Origin: a virus
Length of the DNA: 64,000 nt
Reading direction: 5' to 3' (one strand)
Virus record (IMG/VR): IMGVR_UViG_3300043112_000063
Span: 38,046-102,045 of that record
The notes under the pieces: model-generated
Databases searched by the model: none
Told to the model about the DNA's origin: nothing
The model's input: only the letters and a program-made list of their open reading frames with translations
Shown: piece after piece, positions 1-37,013 of the stretch
Numbering within the stretch: the first letter of the stretch is position 1
Layout of the letters: each line of letters starts with the position of its first letter
Position numbers and translations under genes: made by a program

Positions 1-35
1 GAAGGTTGTAGGTTCAAGTCCTATCGTGTTCACCA
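1..35 (+). tRNA. 3' part of a tRNA truncated by the window edge (identity unknown)
   Basis: T-arm GTAGG-TTCAAGT-CCTAT, acceptor 3' strand and encoded ACCA. Confidence 0.8.
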
Positions 36-182
36 ACAATTAAATAAAACAAGGTTTACCCCGATTCCTTATAAAAAAATCGGGGCGTGGTGGTAACATT
101 CAGAAGATAAGGTAAGCTTAAAGTAATTTTAAAAACTCCCTTATCTTACTAAAGACCTAAGCTTATAGGGTCTTTAGGTTAT

Positions 183-258
183 CGAGGTGTAGCTCAGTAG
201 GAAGAGCGCCTGGTTTGGGACCAGGAGGCCGTAGGTTCGAGACCTATCACTTCGACCA
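183..258 (+). tRNA. tRNA-Pro(TGG)
   Basis: Cloverleaf; anticodon arm CCTGG-TT TGG GA-CCAGG; CCA end. Confidence 0.95.
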
Positions 259-304
259 TTTATAAATTATGTTGCGCTTGTTGAAAAGCTTGTGTGACTC
301 TCGA

Positions 305-380
305 GGTTCTGAGGTGTAATTGGATGCATGTCTGGTTGTCAGCCAGGAGGAAGCGGGTTCGAACCCCGTCTGGACCGCCA
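305..380 (+). tRNA. tRNA-Asp(GTC)
   Basis: TCTGG-TT GTC AG-CCAGG; G73; CCA; A at position 8. Confidence 0.9.
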
Positions 381-554
381 TTAAAAAATTACCGAGTATT
401 ACGGTTAGAATATAGTACACGAGGAAGATAATGATAGCATTAGTATTACGACAATATTTATATTTGAGTTCTTACTGGTTATGCTCAGAGTCTGAAAAAA
501 GACAATCTTTTTATCGTGGGTTAATGTTGGTGTAATCACACCGATTTATTTATT

Positions 555-589
555 ACCTACGACATTTATAATCGTAGGTTTTTTATTTT
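555..589 (+). terminator. Putative intrinsic terminator inside the tRNA array
   Basis: ACCTACGA/TCGTAGGT stem followed by T-run. Confidence 0.55.
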
Positions 590-665
590 GTAGGTAGAAG
601 GCGTATATCTACGGATATACAAGTGTTGTCACACACTTAACCACTGACGAGTGGTAGTGACATTT

Positions 666-750
666 GGCGTTGAGGACGATATAGGTCGAGTCGCAGGGCT
701 TTCAACCCTGTTCATATGTTAAGTGGGTTCGATTCCCATCAACGTCACCA
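666..750 (+). tRNA. tRNA-Glu(TTC) with 12-nt variable region
   Basis: CAGGG-CT TTC AA-CCCTG; variable region TTCATATGTTAA; T-arm GTGGG-TTCGATT-CCCAT; ACCA. Confidence 0.85.
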
Positions 751-754
751 ATAC

Positions 755-844
755 GGAGGATTAGTCAAACGGTTACGACAGCGGCTTGCTAAGCCGTCAA
801 GTCCCGAAAGGGATGTGCAGGTTCGAGTCCTGTATCCTCCGCCA
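755..844 (+). tRNA. tRNA-Ser(GCT)
   Basis: GCGGC-TT GCT AA-GCCGT; long variable arm; G73; CCA. Confidence 0.95.
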
Positions 845-980
845 GATAGTTAACAACAAAATATTCAAGGGATAGCACTGCTGGCCACAGGAAAGTAAAC
901 CCAAGTATAGTTGAGTAAACTCGAGATGACATCCTCATTGAATTGGGAATAGTGAATTATTTGAATATTTTGTTTATTAT

Positions 981-1055
981 AGGAGTGTAGCCAAATGGAA
1001 AGGCACTTGACTTTGAATCAAGTAATTGGAGGTTCGAATCCTCTCACTCCCACCA
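981..1055 (+). tRNA. tRNA-Gln(TTG)
   Basis: CTTGA-CT TTG AA-TCAAG; CCA. Confidence 0.93.
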
Positions 1056-1195
1056 AAAAATTAATAATACAAGAAGTTATCGAAACGAGTGTTTAGTAAA
1101 GTGGTCAATACTTGTACACCAAAACAAGCACACCATTTGAAAGACACGAGGAGTAAATAGTGTTGGATTGGTAATCCTGAACTTGTATTATATAT

Positions 1196-1284
1196 GGGGA
1201 TGCGACAACGATGGCGTGTTGTAACAGGCTGTAACCCTGTCGCCTTAACGGGCTTAGTAGGTTCGAATCCTATCATCCTCACCA
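1196..1284 (+). tRNA. tRNA-Tyr(GTA)
   Basis: ACAGG-CT GTA AC-CCTGT; long variable arm; A73; atypical C8 and 5-bp D-stem. Confidence 0.9.
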
Positions 1285-1287
1285 TAC

Positions 1288-1363
1288 AGGAGTGTAGTTC
1301 AATTGGTAGAACGTTGGTCTCCAAAACCAAATGTTGCAGGTTCGAGTCCTGTCATTCCTGCCA
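1288..1363 (+). tRNA. tRNA-Trp(CCA)
   Basis: TTGGT-CT CCA AA-ACCAA; G73; CCA. Confidence 0.95.
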
Positions 1364-1385
1364 TTATAATACGAAAGGAACTAAA

Positions 1386-1817
1386 ATGATAGACGAGTTT
1401 AGAAAAGAATACAGTTTTTTGAGTAACTTTTATACAGTACCGCTAGTATATAAGGGTCTTGGTTATCCAAGTGCTGAGAACGCATTCCAAGCACAAAAAT
1501 CAACGGAAGAATATCATAAGTTTGCATTTACACACATTACTCCAAAAGAAGCAAAACAATTAGGTAAGCGAGTTCCATTAAGAAGAGATTGGGAAAGAAT
1601 AAAAGATACCATAATGTATGAAATATGTAAAGAAAAGTTTAAGAATAAAGAATTAAGAAAACGCCTACTCGATACTGGTAGTGAGCCTTTAAAAGAAGGA
1701 AACTACTGGCATGATACTTACTGGGGCGTATCCTTAAAAACTGGTAAGGGACTAAATAAACTTGGGAATATTTTAATGCAGATTAGGGAGGAAATACGTG
1801 AAGGAGAGATTACGTAG
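1386..1817 (+). CDS. NADAR (YbiA/RibX-like) family hydrolase
   Basis: FLSNFY, SAENAFQAQK, DTYWG, GLNKLGNILMQIRE motifs; start moved to ATG 1386 after SD GAAAGGA because the longer ORF overlaps two tRNAs. Confidence 0.9.
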   Translation: MIDEFRKEYSFLSNFYTVPLVYKGLGYPSAENAFQAQKSTEEYHKFAFTHITPKEAKQLGKRVPLRRDWERIKDTIMYEICKEKFKNKELRKRLLDTGSEPLKEGNYWHDTYWGVSLKTGKGLNKLGNILMQIREEIREGEIT

Positions 1818-2169
1818 AATAAAAGAATTAACTAAACATAAAGTAGCATTTTTTAAATACGAAAAGAAAATACTTGGTAAACACACTCTTAGAGGGCTAA
1901 CACACGATTTAGATAAGTTACTGTTATACCTAACACCCTTACCGATAAAATACGTTAGAGCGCGACATAAAGCCCGTGCTAGACACCATAATCCAACTAC
2001 AACTAGAGATTATGAGGAGAAACTTGTTGATTATGAGTGTGCTAGGTTTACAAAAAGAAATAGTAAATTAACAGCAATACAATACATAAAGAAAAAATAT
2101 CCTTATGAGAAAAATATACACAGAATAACTCTGTTAGCATTAGCTCAATATTACGGACTAAAGGAGTAG
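1798..2169 (+). CDS. HD-like (DUF5662-type) protein
   Basis: H...THDLDK...HH...DYECARFTK pattern. Confidence 0.55.
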   Translation: MKERLRRIKELTKHKVAFFKYEKKILGKHTLRGLTHDLDKLLLYLTPLPIKYVRARHKARARHHNPTTTRDYEEKLVDYECARFTKRNSKLTAIQYIKKKYPYEKNIHRITLLALAQYYGLKE

Positions 2170-2174
2170 ATTAG

Positions 2175-2798
2175 ATGGAATATGTGATATCAGACTTACA
2201 CGGTAATCACACTAAATTACGGGAAAGAACAAGAACACAATTTAAAACTAATGAGGAAATGTCTGAACACATTGTGAGTTGTTGGAATAAAACCGTTAGT
2301 AAAAATGATATTGTCTATTTACTTGGAGATGTTGGAGATAAAAAGTTTATTGAAAAATATATACCACAATTAAGAGGAACAATAGCACTTATATTAGGTA
2401 ATCATGACGGATATAGTAAAACATTTTATAGAAAACATTTCGACTATGTTTATAATAAGCCTTTTTGGTTATCAAGAAGAATATTATTATCACACTATCC
2501 ACAACCAGTAGAAGACGGGAAAATAAACATACACGGACATACTCACGACATATCATTAAGTTTAGGTAATTATTTTAATGTTAGTGTTGATGTTGTTGAT
2601 TATACTCCTGTAAAAATGAAACGTTTTTACGACGAACTTGGAAAAATAAACAAGCCGAATTGTAAGTTTATGTATGAGTGGTATGCTAAGTATCAAATTC
2701 CAGTTTTACATAGAGATAAAGTAGTGCTAAAGAAAAACGGTTTAGTAAATGTAAATAAATCTAGACGTAAATTATACGGTACTACATACGACGTATAG
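2175..2798 (+). CDS. Calcineurin-like metallophosphoesterase
   Basis: SDLH, LGD, GNHD, SH, HGHTH motifs. Confidence 0.9.
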   Translation: MEYVISDLHGNHTKLRERTRTQFKTNEEMSEHIVSCWNKTVSKNDIVYLLGDVGDKKFIEKYIPQLRGTIALILGNHDGYSKTFYRKHFDYVYNKPFWLSRRILLSHYPQPVEDGKINIHGHTHDISLSLGNYFNVSVDVVDYTPVKMKRFYDELGKINKPNCKFMYEWYAKYQIPVLHRDKVVLKKNGLVNVNKSRRKLYGTTYDV

Positions 2799-2857
2799 GA
2801 GGTTCCATATGAAAAAATTAAATGCCTTGTAATTAAATAATTAAGGAGGCGTTCAAA

Positions 2858-3097
2858 TTGATTAATGGACACAATGAAACACAAAGAAGACTTGAGAAAC
2901 AATACAAAACCTGCCCGAGGAATAATGTCTACTATAATGGTGAAAAAGGCTATTATGTAGAGGAGAAATGGAAACCTAAGGCTGCTATTAAGTTTAAGAA
3001 AAAAGAAAACAATAGGAGACTTAGACGATACAAAGGAGAATTAAGTAACGGTAATTATTATCGTAAAGTTTCGGAGATGTGGTGGGATATTTATTAA
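2858..3097 (+). CDS. Hypothetical basic protein
   Basis: SD AAGGAGG upstream; 79 aa. Confidence 0.65.
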   Translation: MINGHNETQRRLEKQYKTCPRNNVYYNGEKGYYVEEKWKPKAAIKFKKKENNRRLRRYKGELSNGNYYRKVSEMWWDIY

Positions 3098-3150
3098 AAG
3101 AAAATAAGGGCATTCAGTAATCTTCGGACACTGTTGTTAGTCCCGTACTT

Positions 3151-3227
3151 TGCGGGGGAGTGAAACGGATAATCATATTGGGCTCATTACCCAAAGATAG
3201 CAGGTTCGACTCCTGCACCCGCAACCA
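3151..3227 (+). tRNA. tRNA-Met(CAT), initiator-like
   Basis: TTGGG-CT CAT TA-CCCAA (three G-C pairs next to the loop); GCGGG acceptor; U37. Confidence 0.88.
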
Positions 3228-3253
3228 TTTTAATTTTTTGGAGGAGATAATAT

Positions 3254-3349
3254 ATGTGGAAGTATATTAAAAGAATTTTTACAGTAGATAGAGAATACAA
3301 ACGTTTATTACTTATTAGAGAAATTGAAGAGAACTTAAGATTTAAGTAA
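3254..3349 (+). CDS. 31-aa small protein MWKYIKRIFTVDREYKRLLLIREIEENLRFK
   Basis: Strong SD GGAGGAG; fills gap between tRNAs; below ORF-track cut-off. Confidence 0.55.
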   Translation: MWKYIKRIFTVDREYKRLLLIREIEENLRFK

Positions 3350-3364
3350 TCTTAGGTATCTAAT

Positions 3365-3440
3365 GTACCAGTAGCTCAACTGGATGAGCACGGTCCTTCT
3401 AAGGCCGCGGATACAGGTTCGAATCCTGTCTGGTACGCCA
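3365..3440 (+). tRNA. tRNA-Arg(TCT)
   Basis: CGGTC-CT TCT AA-GGCCG; CCA. Confidence 0.95.
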
Positions 3441-3464
3441 TTATAAGAAAGGAATATATTTTAT

Positions 3465-4094
3465 ATGAAGGGTTTATTTATTACGTTTGAAGGAGTAGAG
3501 GGTTCTGGAAAAACTACCATCATCTCTAATGTTTATAAACAACTTAAAGAAAAAGGTTTTGATGTTTTGGTAACAAGGGAGCCTGGAGGAATTAAAATAG
3601 CAGAACAAATAAGAAAGGTTATTTTAGATGTTACAAATACCGAGATGGACAAAAGAACCGAAGCCCTACTTTTTGCGGCGGCAAGAAGACAACACCTAGT
3701 AGAAAAGATAATACCAGCATTAAACGAGGATAAAATAGTTTTGTGCGATAGGTTTATTGACAGCTCATTAGTTTATCAAGGTTTAGCAAGAGATTTAGGA
3801 GTAGACGCTGTATATGATGTTAATAGATTTGCTATTGGAAGTCATATGCCTAACTTAACTATATTACTTGATGTTGAGCCAGAAATAGGACTAAAAAGGA
3901 TTATGAACAGTACTAGAGAAGTTAATAGATTAGATTTAGAGAAATTAGACTTTCATAAAAAGATATATTTTGGATATAGAGATTTTGCTTTACAGTTTCC
4001 AAATAGAATTAAAACTGTTGACGCAGAACAAGAAGTAAGTAAAGTACTAGAAGATTGTATGAAAATAATTATTAGTAAAATAAACGAAAAATAG
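3465..4094 (+). CDS. tmk: Thymidylate kinase
   Basis: FITFEGVEGSGKTT P-loop, TREPGG, LLFAAARRQH, CDRFIDSSLVYQG. Confidence 0.96.
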   Translation: MKGLFITFEGVEGSGKTTIISNVYKQLKEKGFDVLVTREPGGIKIAEQIRKVILDVTNTEMDKRTEALLFAAARRQHLVEKIIPALNEDKIVLCDRFIDSSLVYQGLARDLGVDAVYDVNRFAIGSHMPNLTILLDVEPEIGLKRIMNSTREVNRLDLEKLDFHKKIYFGYRDFALQFPNRIKTVDAEQEVSKVLEDCMKIIISKINEK

Positions 4095-4096
4095 TT

Positions 4097-4172
4097 GTAT
4101 CCGTAGCTTAACTGGAAAAGCATTGGTCTACGGAACCAAAGGATGAAGGTTCGACTCCTTTCGGATATGCCA
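4097..4172 (+). tRNA. tRNA-Arg(ACG)
   Basis: TTGGT-CT ACG GA-ACCAA; CCA. Confidence 0.95.
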
Positions 4173-4175
4173 TAT

Positions 4176-4305
4176 GGCGAGATGGCGGAAATACGTTAGA
4201 CGTACCCTCAGGAAAGAGGGGAAGGTAATAGGATAATTAGGTGAAGTCGACTATAAACTAGTTACAAATAACTTCGTGTAGGTTCAAATCCTACTCTCGC
4301 TACCA
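4176..4305 (+). ncRNA. 130-nt tRNA-like RNA (Leu-like acceptor and D/T arms, no canonical anticodon loop, very long extra arm)
   Basis: GGCGAGA/TCTCGCT-ACCA; T-arm GTAGG-TTCAAAT-CCTAC; hairpin CCCTC-AGGAAA-GAGGG; ~55-nt GAAG...CTTC arm. Confidence 0.8.
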
Positions 4306-4412
4306 TTAAAAATAAAGGTTAATAGTAAGTAGAGGAGATTAATTATTTACTATTGTAAAGAACTGAAAACCCGTTTAATCAATGTTTGCCGAGGCAGTTC
4401 TTCCCTTATATA

Positions 4413-4487
4413 CACGCAGTAGCCAAGAGGAAAGGCGGTAGGTTGCAAACCTGTCTATCGTGGGTTCGATTCCCATCTGCGTGTCCA
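4413..4487 (+). tRNA. tRNA-Cys(GCA)
   Basis: GTAGG-TT GCA AA-CCTGT; U73 discriminator; CCA. Confidence 0.93.
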
Positions 4488-4571
4488 AAAATAAATAATT
4501 TGGAAATACATTAGTTTATAGGGATGTACAGTTAGGTTGATGGGTGTGAACGGGTTAGACTTAACATAGAT

Positions 4572-4659
4572 GGAGGAGTGCACTAATTGGTAGGTGACCT
4601 GTCTTGAAAACAGACGTGCGAGCAATCGTGTGCAGGTTCGAGTCCTGTCTCCTCCGCCA
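4572..4659 (+). tRNA. tRNA-Ser(TGA)
   Basis: CCTGT-CT TGA AA-ACAGA; long variable arm; G73. Confidence 0.93.
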
Positions 4660-4682
4660 GATTTAATTTTAAGGGAGTAGTT

Positions 4683-4904
4683 ATGTTTAGATTAGAATAT
4701 ATCAATAGAAATACTACAAACAAGTGGGAGTTTATTGACAACTTTAAAACGGAAAAGGAAGCACACGATAATATGAAAGAGTTTTTTCGTAAGCATAACT
4801 TTACTTCTTACTATTTAAGAATGATGGCTGAAGACGACGAAGGTTATAAATGGTATGATTTTGGTAGTCACAGTCAATTCTACAGAATCAAAGAAGTACA
4901 ATAA
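4683..4904 (+). CDS. Hypothetical protein
   Basis: SD AAGGGAG; 73 aa. Confidence 0.75.
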   Translation: MFRLEYINRNTTNKWEFIDNFKTEKEAHDNMKEFFRKHNFTSYYLRMMAEDDEGYKWYDFGSHSQFYRIKEVQ

Positions 4905-4909
4905 AATAT

Positions 4910-4985
4910 GTGGACGTAGCTCAGTTGGAAGAGCAGCGGACTTTTAATTCGCGGGTCGGAGGTTCGAGCCCTCTCGTCCACACCA
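4910..4985 (+). tRNA. tRNA-Lys(TTT)
   Basis: GCGGA-CT TTT AA-TTCGC; CCA. Confidence 0.95.
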
Positions 4986-5100
4986 AATTAATAAACTTTT
5001 CTAGAAGACGCTAATCCTATTAGTAAGATATTAAGTTGTCAACGTACTGAAAATAGGAAATTAAAGAATGACAGACTTGGTGTTTTCTAGAACGTTATAT

Positions 5101-5494
5101 GGGGTTGTACTGGATTCGACAGAGTAATAAGAGTATAATTAGCATAGGTTCGGTGGAACTAAAACACACGATTAAATAATCGGAAACTTATTTACAAAAG
5201 CAGTTAGTTGGGTAAAGAGTTTATTCTCTAGACCAACTGTTGCACTTTCAGTCTAAGAAGAGATTGAACGGTTTACTACAATTTTAGTTATTATTTGTAG
5301 ATAAACTGACAGTAAAATAACTAGCTCTATTCGATGTCGGGAGGGTAGAGATGTAAATGGCCGATGAATTGTTGCGTGGTGTTTGTTTATTTAAAAACGT
5401 AATGGATTCTAAAATAAAAGAAAATAAACTAACTATGTAGAATATTGTATCACTGTTATTGTGGACAGGGGTTCAACTCCCCTCAACTCCACCA
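5101..5494 (+). ncRNA. ssrA: tmRNA; predicted tag (A)GNLFTKAVSWVKSLFSRPTVALSV at 5182-5256
   Basis: 5' GGGGTTGTACTGGATTCGAC; 3' GACAGGGGTTCAACTCCCCTCAACTCCACCA; G3-U70 pair; 394 nt; short reading frame after ATAATC. Confidence 0.95.
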
Positions 5495-5636
5495 AATAAA
5501 ACATATAAAGAGATAACGGCCTTAAACTTTAGTGATTAAGACGGAATTCCTCAGAGGAGATATCGATAAATACTGAAACCTCTAAACGTGTAAATAAGCC
5601 ATACTTGTGATTACACTTATCTCTTTATGTATATAC

Positions 5637-5723
5637 GGGTATGTGACGCAACTGGTAGACGTGATGGACTTAAAATCCATTGGTCGTAAGGCCTTGAGGG
5701 TTCGACTCCCTTCATACCCACCA
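5637..5723 (+). tRNA. tRNA-Leu(TAA)
   Basis: ATGGA-CT TAA AA-TCCAT; variable arm; A73; CCA. Confidence 0.95.
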
Positions 5724-5743
5724 TTAAAAGAAAGAAGGAAATT

Positions 5744-5968
5744 ATGTTTAGTTTACAGAAACTTATATATGAAGTTATATCACCAAGATTATCGAATAAA
5801 TCTAATTATATTGCTTATTTAGGAAATAGTAGAGAAAATTATTTACGTTTTAAAAAAACATTCAAATACGATAAAAAATTAGTTTTTGTTTGTGATTACT
5901 CTAATGTTGCTGGAAGAGCTTTTGTTGGCTATATAATTGATGCTGAATTATTATCGGATTTTCTATAA
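5744..5968 (+). CDS. Hypothetical protein
   Basis: SD GAAGGA; 74 aa. Confidence 0.6.
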   Translation: MFSLQKLIYEVISPRLSNKSNYIAYLGNSRENYLRFKKTFKYDKKLVFVCDYSNVAGRAFVGYIIDAELLSDFL

Positions 5969-5974
5969 TAAACA

Positions 5975-6000
5975 AGACAGTCACTTTGTTGACTGTTTTT
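5975..6000 (+). terminator. Intrinsic terminator ending the tRNA region
   Basis: GACAGTCA/TGACTGTT stem plus T-run. Confidence 0.65.
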
Positions 6001-6020
6001 AGTTTGTCAACTATTAACTC

Positions 6021-6049
6021 TTTACATTTCATACCCTTTATGGTATAAT
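6021..6049 (+). promoter_or_regulatory. sigmaA-type promoter with extended -10
   Basis: TTTACA-17 bp-TATAAT with TG at -15/-14; same class at 13374, 24640, 29122, 33067 (+) and about 46059-46087 (-). Confidence 0.8.
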
Positions 6050-6074
6050 ATTTAAAGTAGGGGAGGTTTTTTTT

Positions 6075-8975
6075 ATTAATACATTATACATAAATATAGG
6101 AAAGAAAATACATACAACAGGAAGAAGTCCTAGAGCTTTGTATTTAACCTGTGATTTTAACCTTTCCATAATACATAAAATATTAGGACTTAAAACTAAA
6201 TACTATCATCCAAACTTGGAAATGTGGGAAGTACCATTTGGAGATTTAGACTTAGTTCAGTACACATTTGCAGAGGATAATATCGTAACAAATGACGATA
6301 AGATACAAAAGAAGATAGACCAATATAAAGAATCCGTTAAACCCATAATTGAAAGTGAACCAGTAAGCACATACGTTTTTAAAACAAAACCGTTTAAGCA
6401 TCAATTGGACTGTTTTTACTATGGTTTGGAACACGATAGATTTTTACTTGCGGATGACCAAGGACTTGGAAAAGCGCAACCTTTAGATAGTATTGTGTAC
6501 ACTCCAGAAGGACGAACAACAATGGGAGATATTAAACTTGGGGACGATATTTTAGGTAGAGATGGTAAAACATATAAAGTTCTTGGTGTTTATCCACAAG
6601 GTAAGAAAGATATTTATAAGATAACATTTGATGACGGTAGTGTTGTCGAGACTTGTGATGAGCATTTGTGGACGGTTAAAAATACTTCGCGTAAAAAAAT
6701 GGAAAATCCTTGGTTTACTACGGATTTAAAAAGTATAATGAAAACAATATCTAAAAAACAACGGTATTGGATTCCAATGACAAAACCAGTTCACTTTAAA
6801 GAAACAAGTATTCCTTTACATCCGTATTTAATTGGCGTATTATTAGGAGACGGAGGAATAACAAAGTCAGCTTTTCTAACTACAGCAGATAAGGAAATCC
6901 ACGACAATGTCGTTAGTTATTTACCAAAAAACCACGAGTTGAAAAAAGTTTCTAAGTATAGTTATTGTATTGTAAATGGTGGCAGTTTTAATTCTAACAA
7001 TGTTAAAATATATACACAGGATAAATCTAAGTTATTATTTTCTGGGAATATAAACGAAGGTGCGAAGTGGCTAATAGATAATAAGTACTCAAAATCTAAA
7101 TACTGTAAGAAGTATTTACATCATTCTTTATTAACACTTAGTCCTATACGATATGGACTTTATATTGAAAATGAAGAACCAAAGTATAGAGGCAATAATA
7201 AAGTAGTTAATTATCTAAAAGATTTAAGGTTACTTGGAACAAATAGTCATACAAAGTTTATTCCGGATAACTATCTATATAATAGTCTTGGTAATAGAAT
7301 TGCTTTATTACAAGGACTTATTGATACTGATGGTTACGTTTCTAAAACGGGAATTTTACAATATACATCCGTTTCAAAACAGTTAATAGAGAATGTTAAA
7401 GAATTAGTTCAGTCTTTAGGTGGAAATGCTAGATTAAGTATAAAGGATAATCAATATTATACATTAACTATTAATTTACCAGAAGAAATACAACCTTGTA
7501 GATTAAATAGAAAACTAAAGCGATACCATAAGAGAAAGCATTATTATAAACCGAGAAGAATTATTAATAAAATTGAGTTTGTTGGTAAAAAAGAGGCTCA
7601 GTGTATTAGAACGTCTGCAAAAGATAGTTTATACCTTACCGATGAATTCATAGTTACACACAACACAAAGCAAGTTATTGATTTAGCTGTAAATCGTAAG
7701 CATATGATAAATCACTGTCTTATTGTTTGTGGTGTTAATACCCTTAAATGGAATTGGCTAGAAGAAATACAGACGCATTCAAATGAGAGCGCAAAAGTAA
7801 TCGGTAGTTATGTTAATACAAAAGGACGTCTTGTGCAAGGTGGTATGGATAAAAAGTTAGAATACTTAGATTCAGATTTTGACGATTTTTTCATTATTAC
7901 AAATATGGAATCGTTAAGAAATAAAATGTTCTTGCAAAAAATGGAAAACCTTATAAGTACTGGTGAAGTAAATATGGTTGCTATTGACGAGATACATAAA
8001 ATGAAATCTTCTACAAGTAAAGTAGGTAAAGCAATTCATAAATTACAAAGTTACTATAGAGTCGGTCTCAGCGGAACACCATTAATCACAAATGCTTTAG
8101 ACTTATACAATATACTTAAATGGTTAGGAGAAGAAAATGGTACATTAACTAACTTTAAATATAATTATTGTATATTTGGAGGTTTTGGCGGAAGAGAAAT
8201 TGTCGGTTATAAAAATATGGAGGACCTAAGGCAACGTGTTGAAAACATACAACTTAGGCGACTAAAAGAAGACGTATTTGATTTACCACCAAAACTACAT
8301 CAAAATGTTTATGTAGAATTAGAAGGTAAACAAAGAAAACTTTATAAACTAATTGAAGCGGAATTAATAGAAAAAATAAACGATATTGTTCTTAGTCCAA
8401 ATCCTTTAGCGAAGTTAACTAGACTAAGACAGGTTACAAGTGCTCCTGGAATATTAGACGAAGATACTGGTTATGGGGCTAAGATAGATAGACTTGTTGA
8501 AATAGTAGATGAAGTAACTACGCAAGGACATAAAGTATTAGTTTATAGTAACTGGACACAAGTTTTACATCAAGTTAAAAAGGCGTTGGACCACCATAAT
8601 CCTTTGATGTACACAGGAGAACAAAACGAGAGTATTAGAAACCAAAATAAAAACACTTTCCAAAACGATGAAAGTAGAAAAGTTATTGTTGGTACAGTTG
8701 GTGCTATGGGAACTGGTATTACATTAAATAAAGGTAGTTATGTTATCTTCTTAGATGTTCCGTGGTCACCACAAGATAAAAAACAAGCGGAAGATAGAGC
8801 ACATAGAATTGGAACAAATCATACAGTTAATGTACTAACATTTATTACTAGAGATACTGTTGATGAATATATAGAAGAAATAGTTTACAAGAAGAGTGAA
8901 TTGAGTAATTATTTAGTAGACGGAAAAATTGAAAATAACGCTAAACTTCTTGTTAAATCATTACTTGGATTGTAA
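6075..8975 (+). CDS. SNF2-family (DEAD/DEAH superfamily 2) helicase containing an intein
   Basis: LLADDQGLGK|T Walker A split by intein, DEIH, SGTP, QAEDRAHRIG; start proposed at ATT 6075 (track uses TTG 6138). Confidence 0.92.
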   Translation: MNTLYINIGKKIHTTGRSPRALYLTCDFNLSIIHKILGLKTKYYHPNLEMWEVPFGDLDLVQYTFAEDNIVTNDDKIQKKIDQYKESVKPIIESEPVSTYVFKTKPFKHQLDCFYYGLEHDRFLLADDQGLGKAQPLDSIVYTPEGRTTMGDIKLGDDILGRDGKTYKVLGVYPQGKKDIYKITFDDGSVVETCDEHLWTVKNTSRKKMENPWFTTDLKSIMKTISKKQRYWIPMTKPVHFKETSIPLHPYLIGVLLGDGGITKSAFLTTADKEIHDNVVSYLPKNHELKKVSKYSYCIVNGGSFNSNNVKIYTQDKSKLLFSGNINEGAKWLIDNKYSKSKYCKKYLHHSLLTLSPIRYGLYIENEEPKYRGNNKVVNYLKDLRLLGTNSHTKFIPDNYLYNSLGNRIALLQGLIDTDGYVSKTGILQYTSVSKQLIENVKELVQSLGGNARLSIKDNQYYTLTINLPEEIQPCRLNRKLKRYHKRKHYYKPRRIINKIEFVGKKEAQCIRTSAKDSLYLTDEFIVTHNTKQVIDLAVNRKHMINHCLIVCGVNTLKWNWLEEIQTHSNESAKVIGSYVNTKGRLVQGGMDKKLEYLDSDFDDFFIITNMESLRNKMFLQKMENLISTGEVNMVAIDEIHKMKSSTSKVGKAIHKLQSYYRVGLSGTPLITNALDLYNILKWLGEENGTLTNFKYNYCIFGGFGGREIVGYKNMEDLRQRVENIQLRRLKEDVFDLPPKLHQNVYVELEGKQRKLYKLIEAELIEKINDIVLSPNPLAKLTRLRQVTSAPGILDEDTGYGAKIDRLVEIVDEVTTQGHKVLVYSNWTQVLHQVKKALDHHNPLMYTGEQNESIRNQNKNTFQNDESRKVIVGTVGAMGTGITLNKGSYVIFLDVPWSPQDKKQAEDRAHRIGTNHTVNVLTFITRDTVDEYIEEIVYKKSELSNYLVDGKIENNAKLLVKSLLGL
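6474..7664 (+). mobile_element. Class 3 intein (397 aa) with LAGLIDADG endonuclease
   Basis: Starts Ala (AQPLDS), TCDEHLW block B, AQC block F, VTHN|T end; LIGVLLGDG and LQGLIDTDG motifs. Confidence 0.93.
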
Positions 8976-8989
8976 AGGGGGTACAGAAA

Positions 8990-9472
8990 TTGTCTTTAGA
9001 CAAAACAATTATTGATGCCTATAAGAAACTAAGTTTACAGGATATTCCAGAAGAACCAGAGGAACAGTTGTCCGAACTTGGAGATATAGTGCAGAAGTTT
9101 TACGATGCTTCTCAAACACGTAAACAAGCAAAAAAAGTAGAAGACAAGTATAAAAAAGGAATTCTACTTAGAGTTCAGCCAGGAGAAAGTGTAAACTTAT
9201 CCGACATTGGTTATAATGTAACAATAGGTACAAGAAAGACCATTGATATGGACGAACAAAAATTGGAATACTTAGTTAGAGAGGCAATTAAAGAAAACGA
9301 AGATTTAAAAGATATACTTGTAACAAAAGAAGTTGTAACTATCGATGAGTTTAAATTAAACAAGTATATTGAAGAGGGATTAATTGATGAAAAAGAAGTA
9401 TCAAGTTGTATTACAATTAAGGAATCACCTATGGTGAAAGTTAAAAAAATTAAAGATGGGGGTAAAAAGTAA
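8990..9472 (+). CDS. Hypothetical protein
   Basis: SD AAGGGGG; in replication operon. Confidence 0.75.
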   Translation: MSLDKTIIDAYKKLSLQDIPEEPEEQLSELGDIVQKFYDASQTRKQAKKVEDKYKKGILLRVQPGESVNLSDIGYNVTIGTRKTIDMDEQKLEYLVREAIKENEDLKDILVTKEVVTIDEFKLNKYIEEGLIDEKEVSSCITIKESPMVKVKKIKDGGKK

Positions 9473-29772: not shown

Positions 29773-30939
29773 ATGAAAACAAATGAGCAAGCTTTTGTAG
29801 AGTTATTTAATAAATCCCCACAAAGAGTAATTAACAAACTGGACAAATACGTAGCGGACGGATATATCAAATCAAACGTAAATTCTTTTTTCCCAGAATT
29901 AACGATATACAACTATTCTGAAAAAACAACATTTGAAAGAAAATGGAATACATATACTTTGGCTTGTAGGGGCTTAGTTATTGATAAAAAAGAGTTAAGA
30001 ATAGTTGCTATGCCCTTCTCAAAATTCTTTAATTTAGACGAACTTAAAAATACAGATTATGAACACTTGAGTTGTGTAGAACCAACACAAACATATGAAA
30101 CGTATATTAAGATGGACGGCAGTCTAGGTATTGGCTTTGTACATAAGAACACATTTATATGGTGTACAAGAGGTAGTTTCGATAGTGAACAGGCGAGATT
30201 TGCTAATTTTTATATGCGAGAAAACTTTACTGAAGAAGCGTTAGAGAATTTGGCTTTTGACTATGAAGGGATGACAATACTCGCTGAAATTATTTATCCA
30301 AATAATAGAATTGTTGTTGATTATGGAGAAACAAAAGGCTTAATAATTTTAGGTATGATTAGAAATAGTAATGGTATTGAAATGAATTACCGAGATTTAT
30401 GCTTAGAAGGTTTTATGTGTAACCTTCCAGTAGTTGATAAGTATGAAGGAAATACTAACATTAAAGAGTTATTGAAATCTGCTAAAGAGTGGGACAAAAA
30501 TATGGAGGGTGTTGTTATTAAGTACGCAAACGGAAAACGTCTGAAATTAAAAGGAGCAGAGTATTTACGAGTTCATAAACTAAGATATGGTTTTAGTATG
30601 AAACAACAAGTAGAATTATGGAAGGACCAAATACACGAAAACTATTTAGCGGAAATAGACGAAGAGTTTAGAGATGAATTAGATGTCTTATATAAAACAC
30701 TAGACGTGGTTTTTAATTCTTACGTGTTAGAAGTTATGCGTATGGTTAACGATGTTGAGGTTTTAAAATTAGATAGGTCAGACATATATAAACACTTTGA
30801 ATCTAAAGGTAAAAATAAAACACTTATTGCGTGTGTTTTCTCAGTGTTAGATAATAAAGGCTATAAACAAAAAATACGTGAGTATATGTATAAAGAATAC
30901 CGAAGTATATTGAACGTTAAGGAGTTGGAAGATGAATAA
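29773..30939 (+). CDS. T4 Rnl1-like RNA ligase
   Basis: CRGLV, PFSKFFN, KMDGSLG, TRGSF, EGVV, KLKGAEY. Confidence 0.9.
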   Translation: MKTNEQAFVELFNKSPQRVINKLDKYVADGYIKSNVNSFFPELTIYNYSEKTTFERKWNTYTLACRGLVIDKKELRIVAMPFSKFFNLDELKNTDYEHLSCVEPTQTYETYIKMDGSLGIGFVHKNTFIWCTRGSFDSEQARFANFYMRENFTEEALENLAFDYEGMTILAEIIYPNNRIVVDYGETKGLIILGMIRNSNGIEMNYRDLCLEGFMCNLPVVDKYEGNTNIKELLKSAKEWDKNMEGVVIKYANGKRLKLKGAEYLRVHKLRYGFSMKQQVELWKDQIHENYLAEIDEEFRDELDVLYKTLDVVFNSYVLEVMRMVNDVEVLKLDRSDIYKHFESKGKNKTLIACVFSVLDNKGYKQKIREYMYKEYRSILNVKELEDE

Positions 30940-33176: not shown

Positions 33177-33944
33177 ATGATAGGACAATCTAAGATAATA
33201 TCTGTATTAAAAAATAGAATACCTAATAGTTTACTATTACTTGGAAAAAGTGGTAGTGGTAAAACCACGCTTGCTAATTATCTTAGTGAACAGTTAAGTG
33301 CAGACTTTGCTGTTGTTGAAGATTTAAACATAGCTGAAATTAAAAACATAACTGAAAATGCTAACTATGTTTCTTATAGACGTGTTTATTGTATAGAGAA
33401 CGTACAAGATATGACACCACTTGTCCAAAACGTTTTACTTAAAACACTTGAAGAAGCGAACAGTAAGATTACCTTTGTTCTTTGTGCTACAACCAAGGAA
33501 AATATACTACCTACAATATTAAGTAGATGTACTATAATTAAAATGGATTCTTATACGGAAAAAGAACTACGACATTATAGTGAAACAAGGGCTGGCAATA
33601 TTGATATAAGTTATTGTAAAACTCCGGGCGATATTACATATAAGAAGTACTTAATTGAAGCTGGAATATACGATGAGTTGATGAAACTTGCAGATTTAAT
33701 TACTACCAAAATTACAAAAGCAAACACGGCTAATGTCTTTAATATAATAAACAGATTAGAGACAATGGACTGTGATAAAAAAATGGTACTATGGCTGATT
33801 GACGTGTTAATAATAAAAATGCGAGATTACTATACGGCCTCTAAGTTATGCGTAGAATTTAAACATCACATTATATACAATAATACCAAATGGGAAAGAA
33901 CTTTTGAACAATTACTTGTTAAATTGAATACTATGGAGGTGTAA
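33177..33944 (+). CDS. holB: Clamp loader delta'-like AAA+ subunit
   Basis: MIGQ, GKSGSGKTT, QNVLLKTLEE, ILPTILSRC. Confidence 0.75.
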   Translation: MIGQSKIISVLKNRIPNSLLLLGKSGSGKTTLANYLSEQLSADFAVVEDLNIAEIKNITENANYVSYRRVYCIENVQDMTPLVQNVLLKTLEEANSKITFVLCATTKENILPTILSRCTIIKMDSYTEKELRHYSETRAGNIDISYCKTPGDITYKKYLIEAGIYDELMKLADLITTKITKANTANVFNIINRLETMDCDKKMVLWLIDVLIIKMRDYYTASKLCVEFKHHIIYNNTKWERTFEQLLVKLNTMEV

Positions 33945-34204
33945 TGATGCCTAGATTTTATGTTAAAAACAAAGAAGAAAAATGGAACGTATTTAGTACA
34001 GATGTTAACGCTTACATATTTGATAACTTTATTGACTATGACGTTATGGAACAGATACTACTTGGCGCAACGGTACAAGATAGATTAGCCGAGTTAAGAA
34101 GTTTAAACACAGATAAACCCGTATTGAATGTAGAAACGGAAGAAAAGATAGAACAGTTTATGAAACTTAAAAAACAGGAGGAATTAGATGCTAGAAACGT
34201 ATAA
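33944..34204 (+). CDS. Hypothetical protein
   Basis: SD GGAGG. Confidence 0.65.
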   Translation: MMPRFYVKNKEEKWNVFSTDVNAYIFDNFIDYDVMEQILLGATVQDRLAELRSLNTDKPVLNVETEEKIEQFMKLKKQEELDARNV

Positions 34205-34466
34205 TCACTTGGATAGAAATGGTTTTCAACTACATAAAATGAAAACTCATTTACAAGCAAATAGACAAGACCACGAAGACATATACCTAGTTAATAGTAT
34301 GCTTATTTATCCTGTACTTAATTGGACAAAGAGTGGAAATACCATTTTTAGATATGATATATTTTTTGCTTGCGGCGGAACTATAACCAAAGTAAAGAAT
34401 TTAACCGAGAGCAAACTGTTTAATTATGTTTGTGAATTGGTAGGACGTGAGAAAAATGAATCTTAA
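34188..34466 (+). CDS. Hypothetical protein
   Basis: SD GGAGG. Confidence 0.65.
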   Translation: MLETYNHLDRNGFQLHKMKTHLQANRQDHEDIYLVNSMLIYPVLNWTKSGNTIFRYDIFFACGGTITKVKNLTESKLFNYVCELVGREKNES

Positions 34467-35292
34467 ATTGTACATAAGTAGTGTTGACTATTTTAAAGAA
34501 ACACATCCAAATGCAATAAGGGTTTTAGACATAAATAACTTTATTAGTATATGTCGAAATGTGCCACTATTCACAACAGTTTCTAATACTAAAACGTATT
34601 ACTATACTAATAGTGATATTAAAAAAGAACAGTTAGAAACACTTGTTAAATCAAAACTACCTATTTATATAATAGACGAAAAAATAGATAAAAGAAGTGC
34701 TCTATATAAATACTGTAAAAAGAATAAACTTATTGTTGAACAACCACCAACAAACAGCGCTATTCTTAAAAGAATGTATCCTATGTTATCAAGTAGAAGT
34801 ATTGGAACTATTTTAAAACATAGTACTGATTATACAAAACTCGCTACTACCAATAAACTACTCAATAGTTTTAATAAGCTTACCGATAATAAAGTAGCAT
34901 GGATTTTTTCTGCAGACTATGAAGATAAAATATTTGAAACACTTGACTATTTAATGGTAGGTAATTCAGATAAGTTTTATAAGTTATATTCAGACCTTAT
35001 TAACTTAGGAGAAAGTAAGTTTAAGTTTATGGTGTTGTTGTATAACAAACTTAAAACATTAATACTTATAAAGCCCCATACAGGCGCCAGTATTAAAGAA
35101 ATACAAAACCACACAGGACTTAACTACTACCAAGTAAAGAACAACGTTATGTTAGCGAAAAGGTATAGTATGAATACTTTTGTTAAGTGGTTTTTAGAGT
35201 GCGGAAGGATTGAAAGAGACATTAAGTATGGTAAGGCTGATGTAGACATTGATTTAGAAATACTTATTTTAAACATATTGAAAGGACAATAA
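34456..35292 (+). CDS. holA: Clamp loader delta-like subunit
   Basis: KIDKRSALYK, IFETLD, GLNYYQVK, ERDIKYG...LEILIL C-terminal pattern. Confidence 0.7.
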   Translation: MNLKLYISSVDYFKETHPNAIRVLDINNFISICRNVPLFTTVSNTKTYYYTNSDIKKEQLETLVKSKLPIYIIDEKIDKRSALYKYCKKNKLIVEQPPTNSAILKRMYPMLSSRSIGTILKHSTDYTKLATTNKLLNSFNKLTDNKVAWIFSADYEDKIFETLDYLMVGNSDKFYKLYSDLINLGESKFKFMVLLYNKLKTLILIKPHTGASIKEIQNHTGLNYYQVKNNVMLAKRYSMNTFVKWFLECGRIERDIKYGKADVDIDLEILILNILKGQ

Positions 35293-35293
35293 T

Positions 35294-35572
35294 ATGAGTG
35301 AAAATTATGTATATATGAAGTGCTTGGGTGATATTTGGAAACTTATTTCTTTAAAAAGATGGGGACATAAATACCCAAAAATTGACAACAAAAACAATGA
35401 ATATGATTTTAATTATGCACATAAGTTTACTGAGACATTATCGCTTCACAAAAATGCACATACAGATTTATTAAGTGCTGGAATTGTTTTTAAAGTTGAC
35501 CAAGTGGAAAAGGCATTTGATGATACTTATAATTTTGTATTGAAGTCAATGGGAGGCAATAATGGAAACTAA
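35294..35572 (+). CDS. Hypothetical protein
   Basis: Operonic ORF. Confidence 0.65.
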   Translation: MSENYVYMKCLGDIWKLISLKRWGHKYPKIDNKNNEYDFNYAHKFTETLSLHKNAHTDLLSAGIVFKVDQVEKAFDDTYNFVLKSMGGNNGN

Positions 35573-35903
35573 ATATCTTATGACAATAGCTCCAGTACGA
35601 AAAGACGAACACGGAGTAAATTATATTGTTAGTTATCCAGAATTTCCTGGGCTGACAGGTGGTGGAGATACTATAGAAGAGGCGTGTGAAGTAGCGCAAG
35701 AGGCTTTATCTATGTACTTAGAAACTAACCCTAAACCAAAAGAAAATAAAAAAGATAGAGAATGGGCTATAGAATTACTTAACATATACAGAAATAGATA
35801 CTTTAGAAGTGGGGACAAAAAAGAATACGCTTTGTTTGAGGCTTTAGATACTGTATTGCCAGATTACTACAAGTTAAGAAATCTGGTTAAGAAAGGAAAA
35901 TAA
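35562..35903 (+). CDS. HicB-like antitoxin domain protein
   Basis: YIVSYPEFPGLTGGGDTIEEACEVAQEAL. Confidence 0.8.
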   Translation: METKYLMTIAPVRKDEHGVNYIVSYPEFPGLTGGGDTIEEACEVAQEALSMYLETNPKPKENKKDREWAIELLNIYRNRYFRSGDKKEYALFEALDTVLPDYYKLRNLVKKGK

Positions 35904-35905
35904 AA

Positions 35906-36139
35906 ATGAAAAGAAGTTATGCATCTAAATGGTGGTATAGATTAATTTATAAAGAAGTTAAGCAACTTGTTCGTTGTCCTTATTGTGGAGAATATACAAG
36001 TTATAGTAATCATTTTGTACCAAGATTTTTTGGTAATGGGGATGTTAGATTAAACCATGTTAGTAAATGGTCTGTTTGTTGCGAACATTGTGAATCTGAT
36101 ATTTCATTTAAAGTAGAAACTAAAATAGAAAGGTTGTGA
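35906..36139 (+). CDS. Small zinc-ribbon protein
   Basis: CPYC...CEHC. Confidence 0.65.
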   Translation: MKRSYASKWWYRLIYKEVKQLVRCPYCGEYTSYSNHFVPRFFGNGDVRLNHVSKWSVCCEHCESDISFKVETKIERL

Positions 36140-36277
36140 GTACCTTGTTTAGAAGAGAGAGACCGATTGAACCACCTAATAGTTATTGGGAAGAAGAATA
36201 TGTAGAAGACCCAGCAGAACGAGTTGACGTTGAATACGATAGATATAGAGAACGAGTATTAGATGAGGAGTTCACGA

Positions 36278-36526
36278 ATGAAAAAAATAATTGTAAATAG
36301 ATTTAAAGTTGTTCATATACCGATACTGTTTTTATTTAAAATTAAAGATTTAAAAAAGGTGTATCGATTTAAAGCGACTCACTGGACTGATGGAAACACA
36401 ACTATAAAATATAAACATAAAGATAGTTTACATTGGTATGATTTGGGCTTTAACGGAAACTTATATAGTTATGAAGATTTAGAATATAATTTAAAGGAAT
36501 TGATTGGAGAAATAGATGAACGGTAA
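36278..36526 (+). CDS. Hypothetical protein
   Basis: SD GAGGAG before ATG 36278. Confidence 0.6.
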   Translation: MKKIIVNRFKVVHIPILFLFKIKDLKKVYRFKATHWTDGNTTIKYKHKDSLHWYDLGFNGNLYSYEDLEYNLKELIGEIDER

Positions 36527-37013
36527 ATACGTAACAGATAAGGAAAATAGAATTAATCTAATAAAAGAAACAAAAGAATGGTTAAGCGATGATGAATTAA
36601 CACCTTTACATAAATACGATACTGAAAATTGTAATTATATAATTAGTATTGACCTCATCAACAATATTCAATGGTTATTAGAAAAATATATTGAAGATTT
36701 CTCCAAACTCACACAAATCGAAAACTGTGATGATAGTGAGGTTATGGAGGCTTTGGAAAGAATGGGTAAAGTGGTAATTGGTAAAAATATTCTATTTAGT
36801 GATACTTTTGAATATGTAAACATCAAAACCTACATACTCAAATCACAACAACAAGAGAAAGAATTGAGTGAGTTGAAAAGTAAGGTTAGAGAATTGTTAA
36901 ATCAATTGGACAATTGGTATAAACCCTATGACTGTGGATACAATAAATGGGTAGATGGTATAAGTGATCTACAGTTTGATTTAGAAAAGTTAGTGGGTGA
37001 AGATGATGACTAA
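36516..37013 (+). CDS. Hypothetical modular protein (shares segments with 37217 ORF)
   Basis: EVMEALER, QQQEKELSELKSKVR, LVGEDDD. Confidence 0.7.
   Translation: MNGKYVTDKENRINLIKETKEWLSDDELTPLHKYDTENCNYIISIDLINNIQWLLEKYIEDFSKLTQIENCDDSEVMEALERMGKVVIGKNILFSDTFEYVNIKTYILKSQQQEKELSELKSKVRELLNQLDNWYKPYDCGYNKWVDGISDLQFDLEKLVGEDDD

Follow-up and report, generated by a model that had tools for sequence, protein, structure and literature searches.

Do the non-coding gaps between the tRNA genes of this uncultured phage encode RNAs in their own right, or are they filler, DNA-level insertions or the refuse of tRNA maturation? The window (the whole 64,000-nt stretch of DNA that was analysed) opens inside a tRNA array, whose downstream 5.7 kb lies at positions 1-5723 on the plus strand. 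In full, the array comprises 25 tRNAs, all with an encoded CCA, and a tmRNA on the same strand over ~10 kb (positions 33728-43768 of the 102-kb phage record), with ORFs scattered through it (NADAR, phosphoesterase, thymidylate kinase-like and small ORFs) and an HNH endonuclease gene within it. Five of its junctions are just 3-4 nt long, and the non-coding spacers number eight in the window and 12 in the whole array. Their GC content (0.28-0.36) is the same as that of the genome (0.333), and composition is thus no distinguishing mark of spacers. An earlier note, made from the sequence alone, had proposed that most of the gaps are units closed by long terminal stems, that tRNA processing would release them, and that they form a panel of decoy or sponge RNAs.

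Helix-closed and other spacers of the array

Four of the inter-tRNA gaps are predicted to form modules of 94-128 nt whose ends pair in a terminal helix of 10-16 bp. This confirms the earlier proposal in part: among the eight units it listed, 855-974, 1064-1191, 4999-5092 and 5505-5628 are closed by long stems and 418-517, about 4311-4410, 59-177 and 603-662 are not, so that "most" was an overstatement (4/8 spacers in the window, 4/12 in the whole array). All four modules are given here on the plus strand. The first, between tRNA-Ser(GCU) and tRNA-Gln (855-974), has perfect 14-bp arms (855-868/961-974) around a 92-nt interior, with the helix reaching 17 bp in the MFE fold and a terminal duplex of -18.3 kcal/mol (p 0.008 against dinucleotide shuffles; interior z -0.5). 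The second, between tRNA-Gln and tRNA-Tyr (1064-1191), has perfect 10-bp arms (1064-1073/1182-1191), a terminal duplex of -16.1 kcal/mol in the sense as against -9.6 in the antisense direction, and an interior z of -0.6. The third, between tRNA-Lys and the tmRNA (4999-5092), is the most RNA-like of the four: its 16-bp arms (4999-5014/5077-5092) include three G.U pairs, all on the plus strand, its fold z is -4.6 in sense versus -1.3 in antisense, and its terminal duplex amounts to -21.4 kcal/mol (p < 0.001; interior z -1.9). The last occupies the 139-nt gap between the tmRNA and tRNA-Leu(UAA) (5498-5636), with perfect 12-bp arms (5505-5516/5617-5628) extendable to 16, a terminal duplex of -15.3 kcal/mol (p 0.004) and an interior z of -0.3. 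The flanking geometry is alike throughout, with A/U-rich linkers placing the helix 8-13 nt past the upstream CCA and 4-8 nt ahead of the next tRNA. Each module is single-copy in its own genome and 80 related loci, and no motif is common to them, in agreement with the earlier note.

The remaining listed units have other structures. The composite Asp-Glu spacer (381-665, plus strand) carries a candidate 34-codon ORF (431-535) behind a Shine-Dalgarno-like GAGGAAG motif; the unit at 418-517 overlaps this ORF and folds with a z of only -0.7, and the one at 603-662 consists of local hairpins (z -3.3). The same spacer contains two terminator-like hairpins, one with a T-run at 526-545 and one, recognized by eye, at ~556-590, and these suggest that the array is not one single transcript. 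A scan for sigma-70-type promoters returned no excess, with just weak 9/12 matches inside spacers. The spacer between the tRNA-like element described below and tRNA-Cys (4307-4412, plus strand) has two local, non-significant hairpins; the unit at 4311-4410 has a closing stem of just 4 bp (z -1.5; terminal duplex p 0.37). The Val-Pro spacer (38-182, plus strand) lacks a terminal helix (terminal duplex p 0.77) and consists of three or four local hairpins in a row. Its fold is better on the minus strand (z -5.1) than on the plus strand (-2.6), and the same is true of its segment 59-177 (-5.3 versus -3.6). The Cys-Ser spacer (4488-4571, plus strand) is unstructured (z -0.8). A further, CCA-ended element at 4176-4305 on the plus strand is tRNA-like, with an acceptor stem and a T-arm (copy at 4280-4306). 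Besides true tRNAs, this is the sole place with a T-arm copy of the GGTTCGAATCC type, and none occurs in the four helix-closed modules.

Pairing in excess of chance and on the transcribed strand

Could ordinary A/T-rich spacers simply happen to hold inverted repeats? The coordinates had been picked after inspection of the sequence, and ~2% of random genome windows reach a similar terminal-duplex energy, both of which would favour such an accident. However, few inverted repeats spanning up to 200 nt in window positions 1-6200 are as long and as well matched as the four arm pairs, all four helices are terminal with like geometry, and helix closure is found in 4/12 non-coding array spacers but in only 1/150 control windows taken from other phage loci (Fisher p 9e-5). 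The pattern also recurs in other phage arrays, where 5/52 spacers are helix-closed at p < 0.01 (~10% of spacers of 85-200 nt) versus the same 1/150 control windows; these look-alikes have the same architecture and no sequence similarity. Among 117 gaps of 201-1600 nt that contain ORFs in other phages, none had a terminal helix at p < 0.01, indicating that helix closure is specific to short non-coding spacers. Taken with these comparisons, a chance origin is very improbable.

The excess is concentrated at the ends of the modules. The shuffled controls called for in the earlier note divide accordingly: the terminal duplexes of the four modules (-15.3 to -21.4 kcal/mol) outdo 1000 dinucleotide shuffles (p <= 0.008), whereas the interiors of three of the four (z -0.3 to -0.6) fold no better than shuffles, that of 4999-5092 being the other. 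Whole-spacer fold z lies between -2.3 and -3.7 in 6/8 window spacers, against a genome background with a mean of -0.39 (sd 1.16) in which 5.6% of values are <= -2.3. These patterns are best read as selection on the closing helix and not on a particular interior.

Further, the pairing carries a strand bias. Ten helices, from this array and from other phages, together contain 129 Watson-Crick pairs, 10 G.U, 2 A.C and no transversion mismatches; the G.U to A.C ratio of 10:2 has a binomial p of 0.019, with only 12 non-Watson-Crick positions behind the bias. In 7/10 helices the terminal duplex is more stable in sense than in antisense by >1 kcal/mol, in 2/10 the two are within 0.5 of each other, and in the remaining one the sense duplex is weaker by 1.7. 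Since the imperfect positions read as G.U on the tRNA strand, the pairing appears to be selected in RNA, and the earlier argument from G-U pairs holds. In predicted ensembles, the flanking tRNAs would hold their own fold better with native than with shuffled spacers in 8/8 comparisons (empirical p 0.02-0.27 each); such insulation is the expected outcome of any strong self-pairing, and its per-case significance is weak.

Turnover between strains and the proposed fate of the spacer RNA

The phage occurs at oil-field and wastewater sites. A look-up of the public runs that contain its sequence listed no RNA run, and comparison with DNA contigs from such runs shows that the modules differ between close strains. 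The module at 5498-5636 is missing whole in a 98%-identical strain, where a contig of run X5 joins 5497 straight to 5637 with no shared and no inserted letters. That at 1056-1195 is replaced in a 99.8%-identical strain, a contig of run X3 departing from our sequence at 1059-1061, and a pattern scan of sequence collections with this variant spacer found no match. In the syntenic relative L004, the tRNA-Gln/tRNA-Tyr junction, which here holds module 1064-1191, is just 3 nt and the Cys-Ser junction (4488-4571) just 4 nt, and none of the module sequences is conserved. The nearest relative by protein is a 24.6-kb contig encoding a phosphoesterase (P0002) with 81% identity. On these sequence comparisons, the modules are best viewed as dispensable cassettes that may be gained, lost or swapped between close strains.

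Such clean presence or absence of a whole module, the perfect inverted repeats around ~100 bp and the HNH endonuclease gene in the same array could be the marks of DNA-level elements with no RNA role, i.e., invertible segments, miniature mobile elements or scars of template switching or homing. This is improbable: G.U pairs on the transcribed strand account for every helix imperfection except two, the modules are not repeated within the genome or the 80 related loci, the 5497/5637 joint has neither target-site duplication nor microhomology, and neither a serine nor a tyrosine recombinase is encoded by the phage. Inversion in particular was rejected: the phage has no resolvase or integrase domain, and four runs, at low coverage, showed no strand-switch joint at any module. 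Correia/ERIC-type elements are ~100-150 bp stretches of transcribed intergenic DNA with terminal inverted repeats that form RNA hairpins, and the modules resemble them in size, intergenic position, terminal inverted repeats and predicted folding as RNA. However, those elements form multi-copy families with target duplications, and a miniature inverted-repeat mobile element was rejected for the modules, which are unique and single-copy with no target-site duplication.

Searches for families and homologues returned little beyond the tRNAs. With Rfam covariance models at E <= 1 over window positions 1-9000 and the upstream array, none of the four modules had a match, so this check of the earlier note's proposal came back negative, and the only matches above cut-off in the region were to tRNA and tmRNA. 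A Ref84 match at 494-586 in the 381-665 spacer fell far below threshold (30.8 of 52 bits, E 0.93), and the Ile-Met spacer upstream gave one weak ToxI-like match (27.8 of 50 bits) that had no tandem copies and was judged to be chance; integron attC core motifs compared by eye gave no match. The look-alike spacers of loci L005, L056, L077 and L079 had no Rfam match either. Searched by blastn against 50,697 GenBank phage records, T5 included, positions 1-6000 matched only tRNAs, tmRNA and the kinase gene, and in 80 IMG/VR loci and the phage's own genome neither blastn nor blastn-short nor nhmmer recovered a spacer homologue. None of the collections searched contained one.

These results weigh on the idea that every module acts in trans as an RNA, whether as a decoy for defence nucleases or toxins or as a protein sponge, with strain turnover reflecting an arms race. 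Presence/absence and replacement in genomes otherwise 98-99.8% identical would fit it, as would the reappearance of this architecture in arrays of unrelated phages and a location in a region that is plausibly highly transcribed. Yet the modules share neither a motif nor an Rfam family, their interiors lack excess structure, even the syntenic relative shows no conservation of them, and there is no partner gene, with the TROVE/Ro protein absent from the phage. A trans-acting role is hence unlikely, and the panel of decoys or sponges finds no support in plain interiors, the want of Rfam matches and homologues, and two modules absent or replaced in 98-99.8%-identical strains.

The explanation we prefer, with a probability of roughly 0.55, is that the modules are co-transcribed with the array and freed by tRNA processing as nuclease-resistant RNAs. 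The four non-coding modules would be transcribed together with the tRNA array, each spacer folding on itself; RNase P would cleave where the downstream tRNA begins, and the short A/U-rich linker past the upstream CCA would be cut by an endonuclease. An RNA of 95-140 nt would thereby be freed, its paired ends shielding it from exonucleases, and helix closure might also prevent the spacer from mispairing with neighbouring tRNAs. Precursors with an encoded CCA are normally trimmed by 3' exonucleases. Since a helix 8-13 nt past the CCA would block these, an extra endonuclease cut must be assumed. In E. coli, a cut just after the CCA is combined with RNase P cleavage (PMC2190699), and the constant geometry together with the encoded CCA fits this pathway, though the RNase set there may not be that of the host. 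The earlier suggestion that tRNA processing would release the spacers is consistent with the linker geometry and has a direct precedent in T5 RNAIII, an annotated stable RNA that ends exactly at the start of tRNA-His. Co-transcription, cleavage at these sites, accumulation of the RNAs and any benefit that they bring are what we infer for the modules.

Alternatively, the helices could be processing stalks, i.e., sites for an RNase III-type double-strand nuclease, with the spacer discarded and no stable RNA produced. Selection on the helix alone, around random-looking interiors with fast turnover, is what such stalks would entail; the helices of 14-17 bp (in an overall range of 10-17 bp) are near-perfect dsRNA, and RNase III reportedly has a role in T4 tRNA synthesis (McClain 1979, cited in PMC4810235). 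Conversely, at 10-12 bp some of the helices are short for an RNase III substrate, no RNase III domain is encoded by the phage, and the T5 look-alikes are annotated as stable, with both helix strands retained. Discarded stalks are a fairly unlikely account of the modules. Release as protected RNAs could be extended to a broader and unlikely conjecture, in which helix-closed spacers would be widespread, fast-turnover accessory RNAs of phages: tRNA arrays would carry them for the defined, protected ends that tRNA processing supplies, their gain, loss and replacement between strains would reflect conflict with host defence (e.g., with interiors as decoys or guides and the helix as chassis), and T5 RNAIII, RNAIV and RNA2H would be the cultured representatives.

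Comparison with known phage and bacterial RNAs

For some five decades T4 and T5 have been known to encode, in their tRNA regions, small stable RNAs to which no function is assigned. In the literature searched, phage tRNA arrays were nowhere described as containing helix-closed spacers. A similar shape is known from Y RNAs and bacterial YrlA, in which an end-to-end helix closes a loose interior and which in some phages lie near tRNAs; the module ends likewise form a long helix around a loosely structured interior. Membership of this group was rejected, as the spacers gave no Rfam Y RNA-like match, the sole weak one lying over tRNA-Tyr/Trp, and a search of the phage genes (the phage, not the host) returned no Ro (TROVE) domain.

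The RNAs of T4 offer a looser likeness than those of T5. RNAC (species 1, 139 nt) and RNAD (species 2, 119 nt) lie beside tRNA-Arg in the tRNA cluster (PMC3014915; PMC9697503), and the modules are like them in being small, of the same size class and in a tRNA cluster. RNAC, however, is tRNA-like in that it has a GGTTCGAATCC T-arm and its closure is short and acceptor-like; it resembles the element at 4176-4305 and not the four modules, while RNAD, again unlike the modules, has no long terminal helix and a fold z of -0.8. The element at 4176-4305 is accordingly the counterpart of the tRNA-like stable RNAs, namely RNA1 and RNA2 of T5 and RNAC of T4.

The closest parallel is with three RNAs annotated in T5 (NC_005859) as "stable RNAs with unknown functions": RNAIII (106 nt), RNAIV (103 nt) and RNA2H (172 nt), with predicted terminal helices of 12 bp, about 8-10 bp and 10 bp, respectively. 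As in these RNAs of 100-170 nt, the modules lie between or abut same-strand tRNA genes, and their ends are paired in a terminal helix that closes the interior (multi-branch in T5). RNAIII ends precisely where tRNA-His starts, and its interior (z -0.7) is as unremarkable as those of the modules. Like them, it is present or absent among relatives: most of it is covered at at least 95% identity in 283 records, and among the partial matches listed the tRNA-His end alone is retained. The differences are that the modules have no sequence similarity to T5 and are known here by prediction, the T5 RNAs being annotated as stable, and that the module helices are longer and nearer perfect (10-16 bp as against 8-12 bp), with the T5 terminal duplexes standing out less from shuffles of their own sequence (p 0.02-0.11).

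The T5-type layout is thus now seen in an unrelated uncultured phage, and also in about one in ten mid-sized spacers of other metagenomic phage tRNA arrays. Selection on the helix at the RNA level and cassette behaviour narrow the possible functions, and were these RNAs to prove by-products or insulators of processing, the old question would be settled too. The resemblance to the T5 RNAs is an analogy of architecture that does not imply common descent. On that analogy, the modules are a further example of an old, unexplained kind of phage RNA and not a novel kind, counterparts of T5 RNAIII, RNAIV and RNA2H in position, size and architecture, though not in sequence.

The tRNA array and its helix-closed gaps

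The window spans positions 38046-102045 of a 102-kb IMG/VR virus record. On the whole record, ARAGORN places 25 tRNAs, all on one strand and together serving all 20 amino acids, and a tmRNA at record positions 33728-43768; of this 10-kb array the window hence holds only the downstream 5.7 kb. The sequencing runs with the record sequence are mostly oil-field metagenomes. Every tRNA has an encoded CCA, and five junctions are just 3-4 nt long. The wider gaps are occupied by ORFs with good ribosome-binding sites, namely those for a NADAR domain protein, a calcineurin-like phosphoesterase, a thymidylate kinase-like protein and, upstream of the window, an HNH endonuclease, in addition to several small ORFs. 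Non-coding gaps of at least 79 nt number 12 in the array and eight in the window (38-182, 381-665, 845-980, 1056-1195, 4307-4412, 4488-4571, 4986-5100 and 5495-5636), with the gap at 4307-4412 lying 3' of a CCA-ended tRNA-like element (4176-4305). The GC fraction of the spacers, 0.28-0.36, equals the genome average (0.333).

An earlier note had described eight inter-tRNA units as small structured RNAs with long terminal stems. The stems quoted exist for four of them, which we term modules: 855-974 (arms 855-868/961-974, 14 of 14 bp), 1064-1191 (1064-1073/1182-1191, 10 of 10 bp), 4999-5092 (4999-5014/5077-5092, 16 bp including three G.U) and 5505-5628 (5505-5516/5617-5628, 12 of 12 bp, extendable to 16). 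In both length and match, these rank near the top of the inverted repeats with a span of up to 200 nt in window 1-6200. When the strongest pairing of the 35 nt at one end of a spacer with the 35 nt at its other end is scored and compared with 1000 dinucleotide shuffles, the terminal duplexes of the four modules reach -15.3 to -21.4 kcal/mol (p <= 0.008), while the remaining eight array spacers give p values of 0.13-0.96. A value of -15.3 kcal/mol is attained by only ~2% of 3000 random genome windows, and significant terminal duplexes are found in 4/12 array spacers as against 1/150 control windows (Fisher p 9e-5). Further, the possibility that the spacers fold no better than shuffled sequence, which the earlier note named as refuting its reading, is not borne out, as whole-spacer z-scores lie between -2.3 and -3.7 in six of the eight window spacers; in the genome background (mean -0.39, sd 1.16), 5.6% of values are -2.3 or lower.

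The other half of the units lack the described layout. The unit at 418-517 has a fold z of -0.7 and overlaps a 34-codon ORF (431-535, in the Asp-Glu spacer) for a hydrophobic peptide; GAGGAAG lies 5 nt 5' of its ATG, and the ORF may be a real micro-gene instead of an RNA structure. In one strain, 437 G>A changes an Ala of this ORF to Thr. Two local hairpins each make up 4311-4410 (z -1.5) and 603-662, and 59-177 is a row of hairpins with a more stable fold on the minus strand. The entire Val-Pro spacer (38-182) scores z -5.1 on the minus strand versus -2.6 on the tRNA strand, unlike the four modules. A hairpin with a T-run at 526-545 in spacer 381-665 is terminator-like, and a second of this kind was seen by eye at ~556-590. 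Additionally, the end of the Asp-Glu spacer forms an 11-nt inverted repeat with the odd tRNA-Glu (631-641/718-728, 10 of 11 paired), the second arm of which lies where the long variable region of that tRNA passes into its T-arm; pairing would compete with the cloverleaf.

The helix-closed layout is not peculiar to this phage. In a survey of 52 distinct same-strand inter-tRNA spacers of 85-200 nt from other loci, five have a terminal duplex with p < 0.01, against a count of 1/150 in random windows (Fisher p 0.005). Two of the five belong to a tmRNA-bearing locus, L005, with a 49% identical phosphoesterase and a third such spacer at p 0.013; spacers of the phage loci L056, L079 and L077 have 16-17 bp helices running from the first base after one tRNA to one base before the next. 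Rfam matched none of these look-alikes, and terminal helices are not enriched in ORF-bearing gaps of 201-1600 nt. Spacers L005:9618-9819 and L077:4780-4880 hold tRNA-like sequences with a CCA end, an acceptor stem and a T-arm, none of them called by ARAGORN.

In the Ala-Val gap (record 37497-38004; window -548 to -41; L083:4497-5004), the 157-aa HNH endonuclease ORF is enclosed by a long-range helix of 14 bp, three of them G.U (-17.4 kcal/mol in sense, -9.7 kcal/mol in antisense orientation, p 0.003); the 5' arm of the helix is just upstream of the GTG start and its 3' arm over the stop codon. By analogy with the translational sequestration described for T4 homing endonuclease genes, this helix may sequester the ORF from translation.

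Constraint on the helix and exchange of the modules

Without their arms, the interiors fold no better than shuffles (z -0.5 for 869-960, -0.6 for 1074-1181, -0.3 for 5517-5616 and -1.9 for 5015-5076); the signal of a structured RNA thus comes from the closing helix rather than from an evolved, compact fold. The geometry around the helix is constant, with A/T-rich linkers placing it 8-13 nt 3' of the upstream CCA and 4-8 nt 5' of the next tRNA.

The closing helix is an RNA-level feature. Ten pooled helices, four from here and six from other phages, contain 129 Watson-Crick pairs, 10 G.U on the tRNA-sense strand, 2 A.C and no transversion mismatches, a G.U bias with a binomial p of 0.019 based on 12 positions. 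The sense terminal duplex is more than 1 kcal/mol stronger than the antisense in seven of the ten, within 0.5 in two and 1.7 weaker in one. DNA-level readings of the modules are disfavoured by this bias and by three further observations: the modules are single-copy, no further copies having been found elsewhere in the phage genome; the strain joint 5497/5637 is without target duplication; and the phage is without recombinase genes.

None of the four modules matched Rfam at E <= 1, the sole non-tRNA match in a spacer being Ref84 at 494-586 (30.8 of 52 bits, E 0.93), far below threshold. Spacer-like DNA was found neither in 50,697 GenBank phage records nor in 80 IMG/VR loci fetched via the array-embedded phosphoesterase. 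In the nearest relative compared, L004 (phosphoesterase 57% identical, same tRNA order), the Gln-Tyr junction has 3 nt versus 140 nt here and the Cys-Ser junction 4 nt versus 84 nt. Logan contigs of four other metagenomes were compared with window 1-6000, each variant being a single low-depth contig. A 418-nt contig of run X5, 98% identical across the tmRNA, fuses 5497 directly to 5637: exactly the 139-nt module is gone and the usual 3-nt junction remains. A 699-nt contig of run X3, 99.8% identical at 501-1059, diverges 4-6 nt 3' of tRNA-Gln, at the start of the 1064-1191 module. Together, these contigs indicate that the modules are discrete, dispensable and swapped among near-identical strains.

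Other parts of the array also vary. In X3, 222 nt at 1363-1586 (5' half of the NADAR-domain ORF) are replaced by 220 unrelated letters between near-identical flanks, a further cassette-like exchange. Contigs of runs X5 and X7 have five substitutions in 18 nt of the tmRNA tag reading frame (5203-5220) and a nearly identical tmRNA outside the predicted tag part, and hence the tag differs among strains; at 4217, contigs of the same two runs have one additional G, lengthening a run of G in the tRNA-like element's anticodon-like stem.

Predicted release and its alternatives

In polycistronic tRNA precursors of E. coli, one cut is made just 3' of every CCA, and RNase P makes another at every 5' end (PMC2190699). 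The same two cuts here would fall in the A/U-rich linkers flanking the helix and would set free an RNA whose ends are paired. When tRNA-spacer-tRNA segments are folded with the partition function, the tRNAs on either side keep their own structure with a probability of 0.54-0.97 for native spacers versus a mean of 0.39-0.88 for shuffled ones, native exceeding shuffled in all eight comparisons (individual p 0.02-0.27). Self-closure of the spacer is hence predicted to also have a cis effect on the flanking tRNAs. We favour the view that the modules are helix-closed passengers, which would be tolerated because they fold on themselves and would emerge as stable RNAs. The chief rival view is that of an RNase III-type stalk, in which the spacer is cut and discarded; a trans-acting decoy function, as proposed in the earlier note, is a minority possibility.

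Counterparts in T5 and T4

The modules may be compared with RNAs in the GenBank record of phage T5, which annotates eight RNAs within the tRNA region, seven as "stable RNA with unknown functions" or "tRNA-like stable RNA" and the eighth, RNA3, just as a putative tRNA-like RNA. Folding by the method used for the window spacers predicts a 12-bp terminal helix closing three branches in T5 RNAIII (106 nt), and terminal helices of 10 bp in RNA2H (172 nt) and 8-10 bp in RNAIV (103 nt). The last base of RNAIII directly precedes tRNA-His, and thus RNase P makes its 3' end. Its interior has a fold z of -0.7, and a plain interior is therefore no argument against stability. When an RNAIII query (L087, T5 30259-30419) was compared with 424 T5-like records, 283 held most of it at 95-100% identity, and the partial matches listed are confined to the final ~11 nt of RNAIII and the start of tRNA-His. 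This presence pattern mirrors the cassette behaviour of the modules, and judging by these records RNAIII seems to be an accessory cassette among cultured phages as well. In T4, RNAC and RNAD adjoin tRNA-Arg; northern blotting has confirmed both (PMC9697503), and their roles are unknown (PMC3014915). As RNAC is tRNA-like with a T-arm, it is the counterpart of the element at 4176-4305, which has an acceptor stem and T-arm, and not of the four spacers. By their predicted layout, the four modules would be new examples of an already known, unexplained kind of phage RNA.
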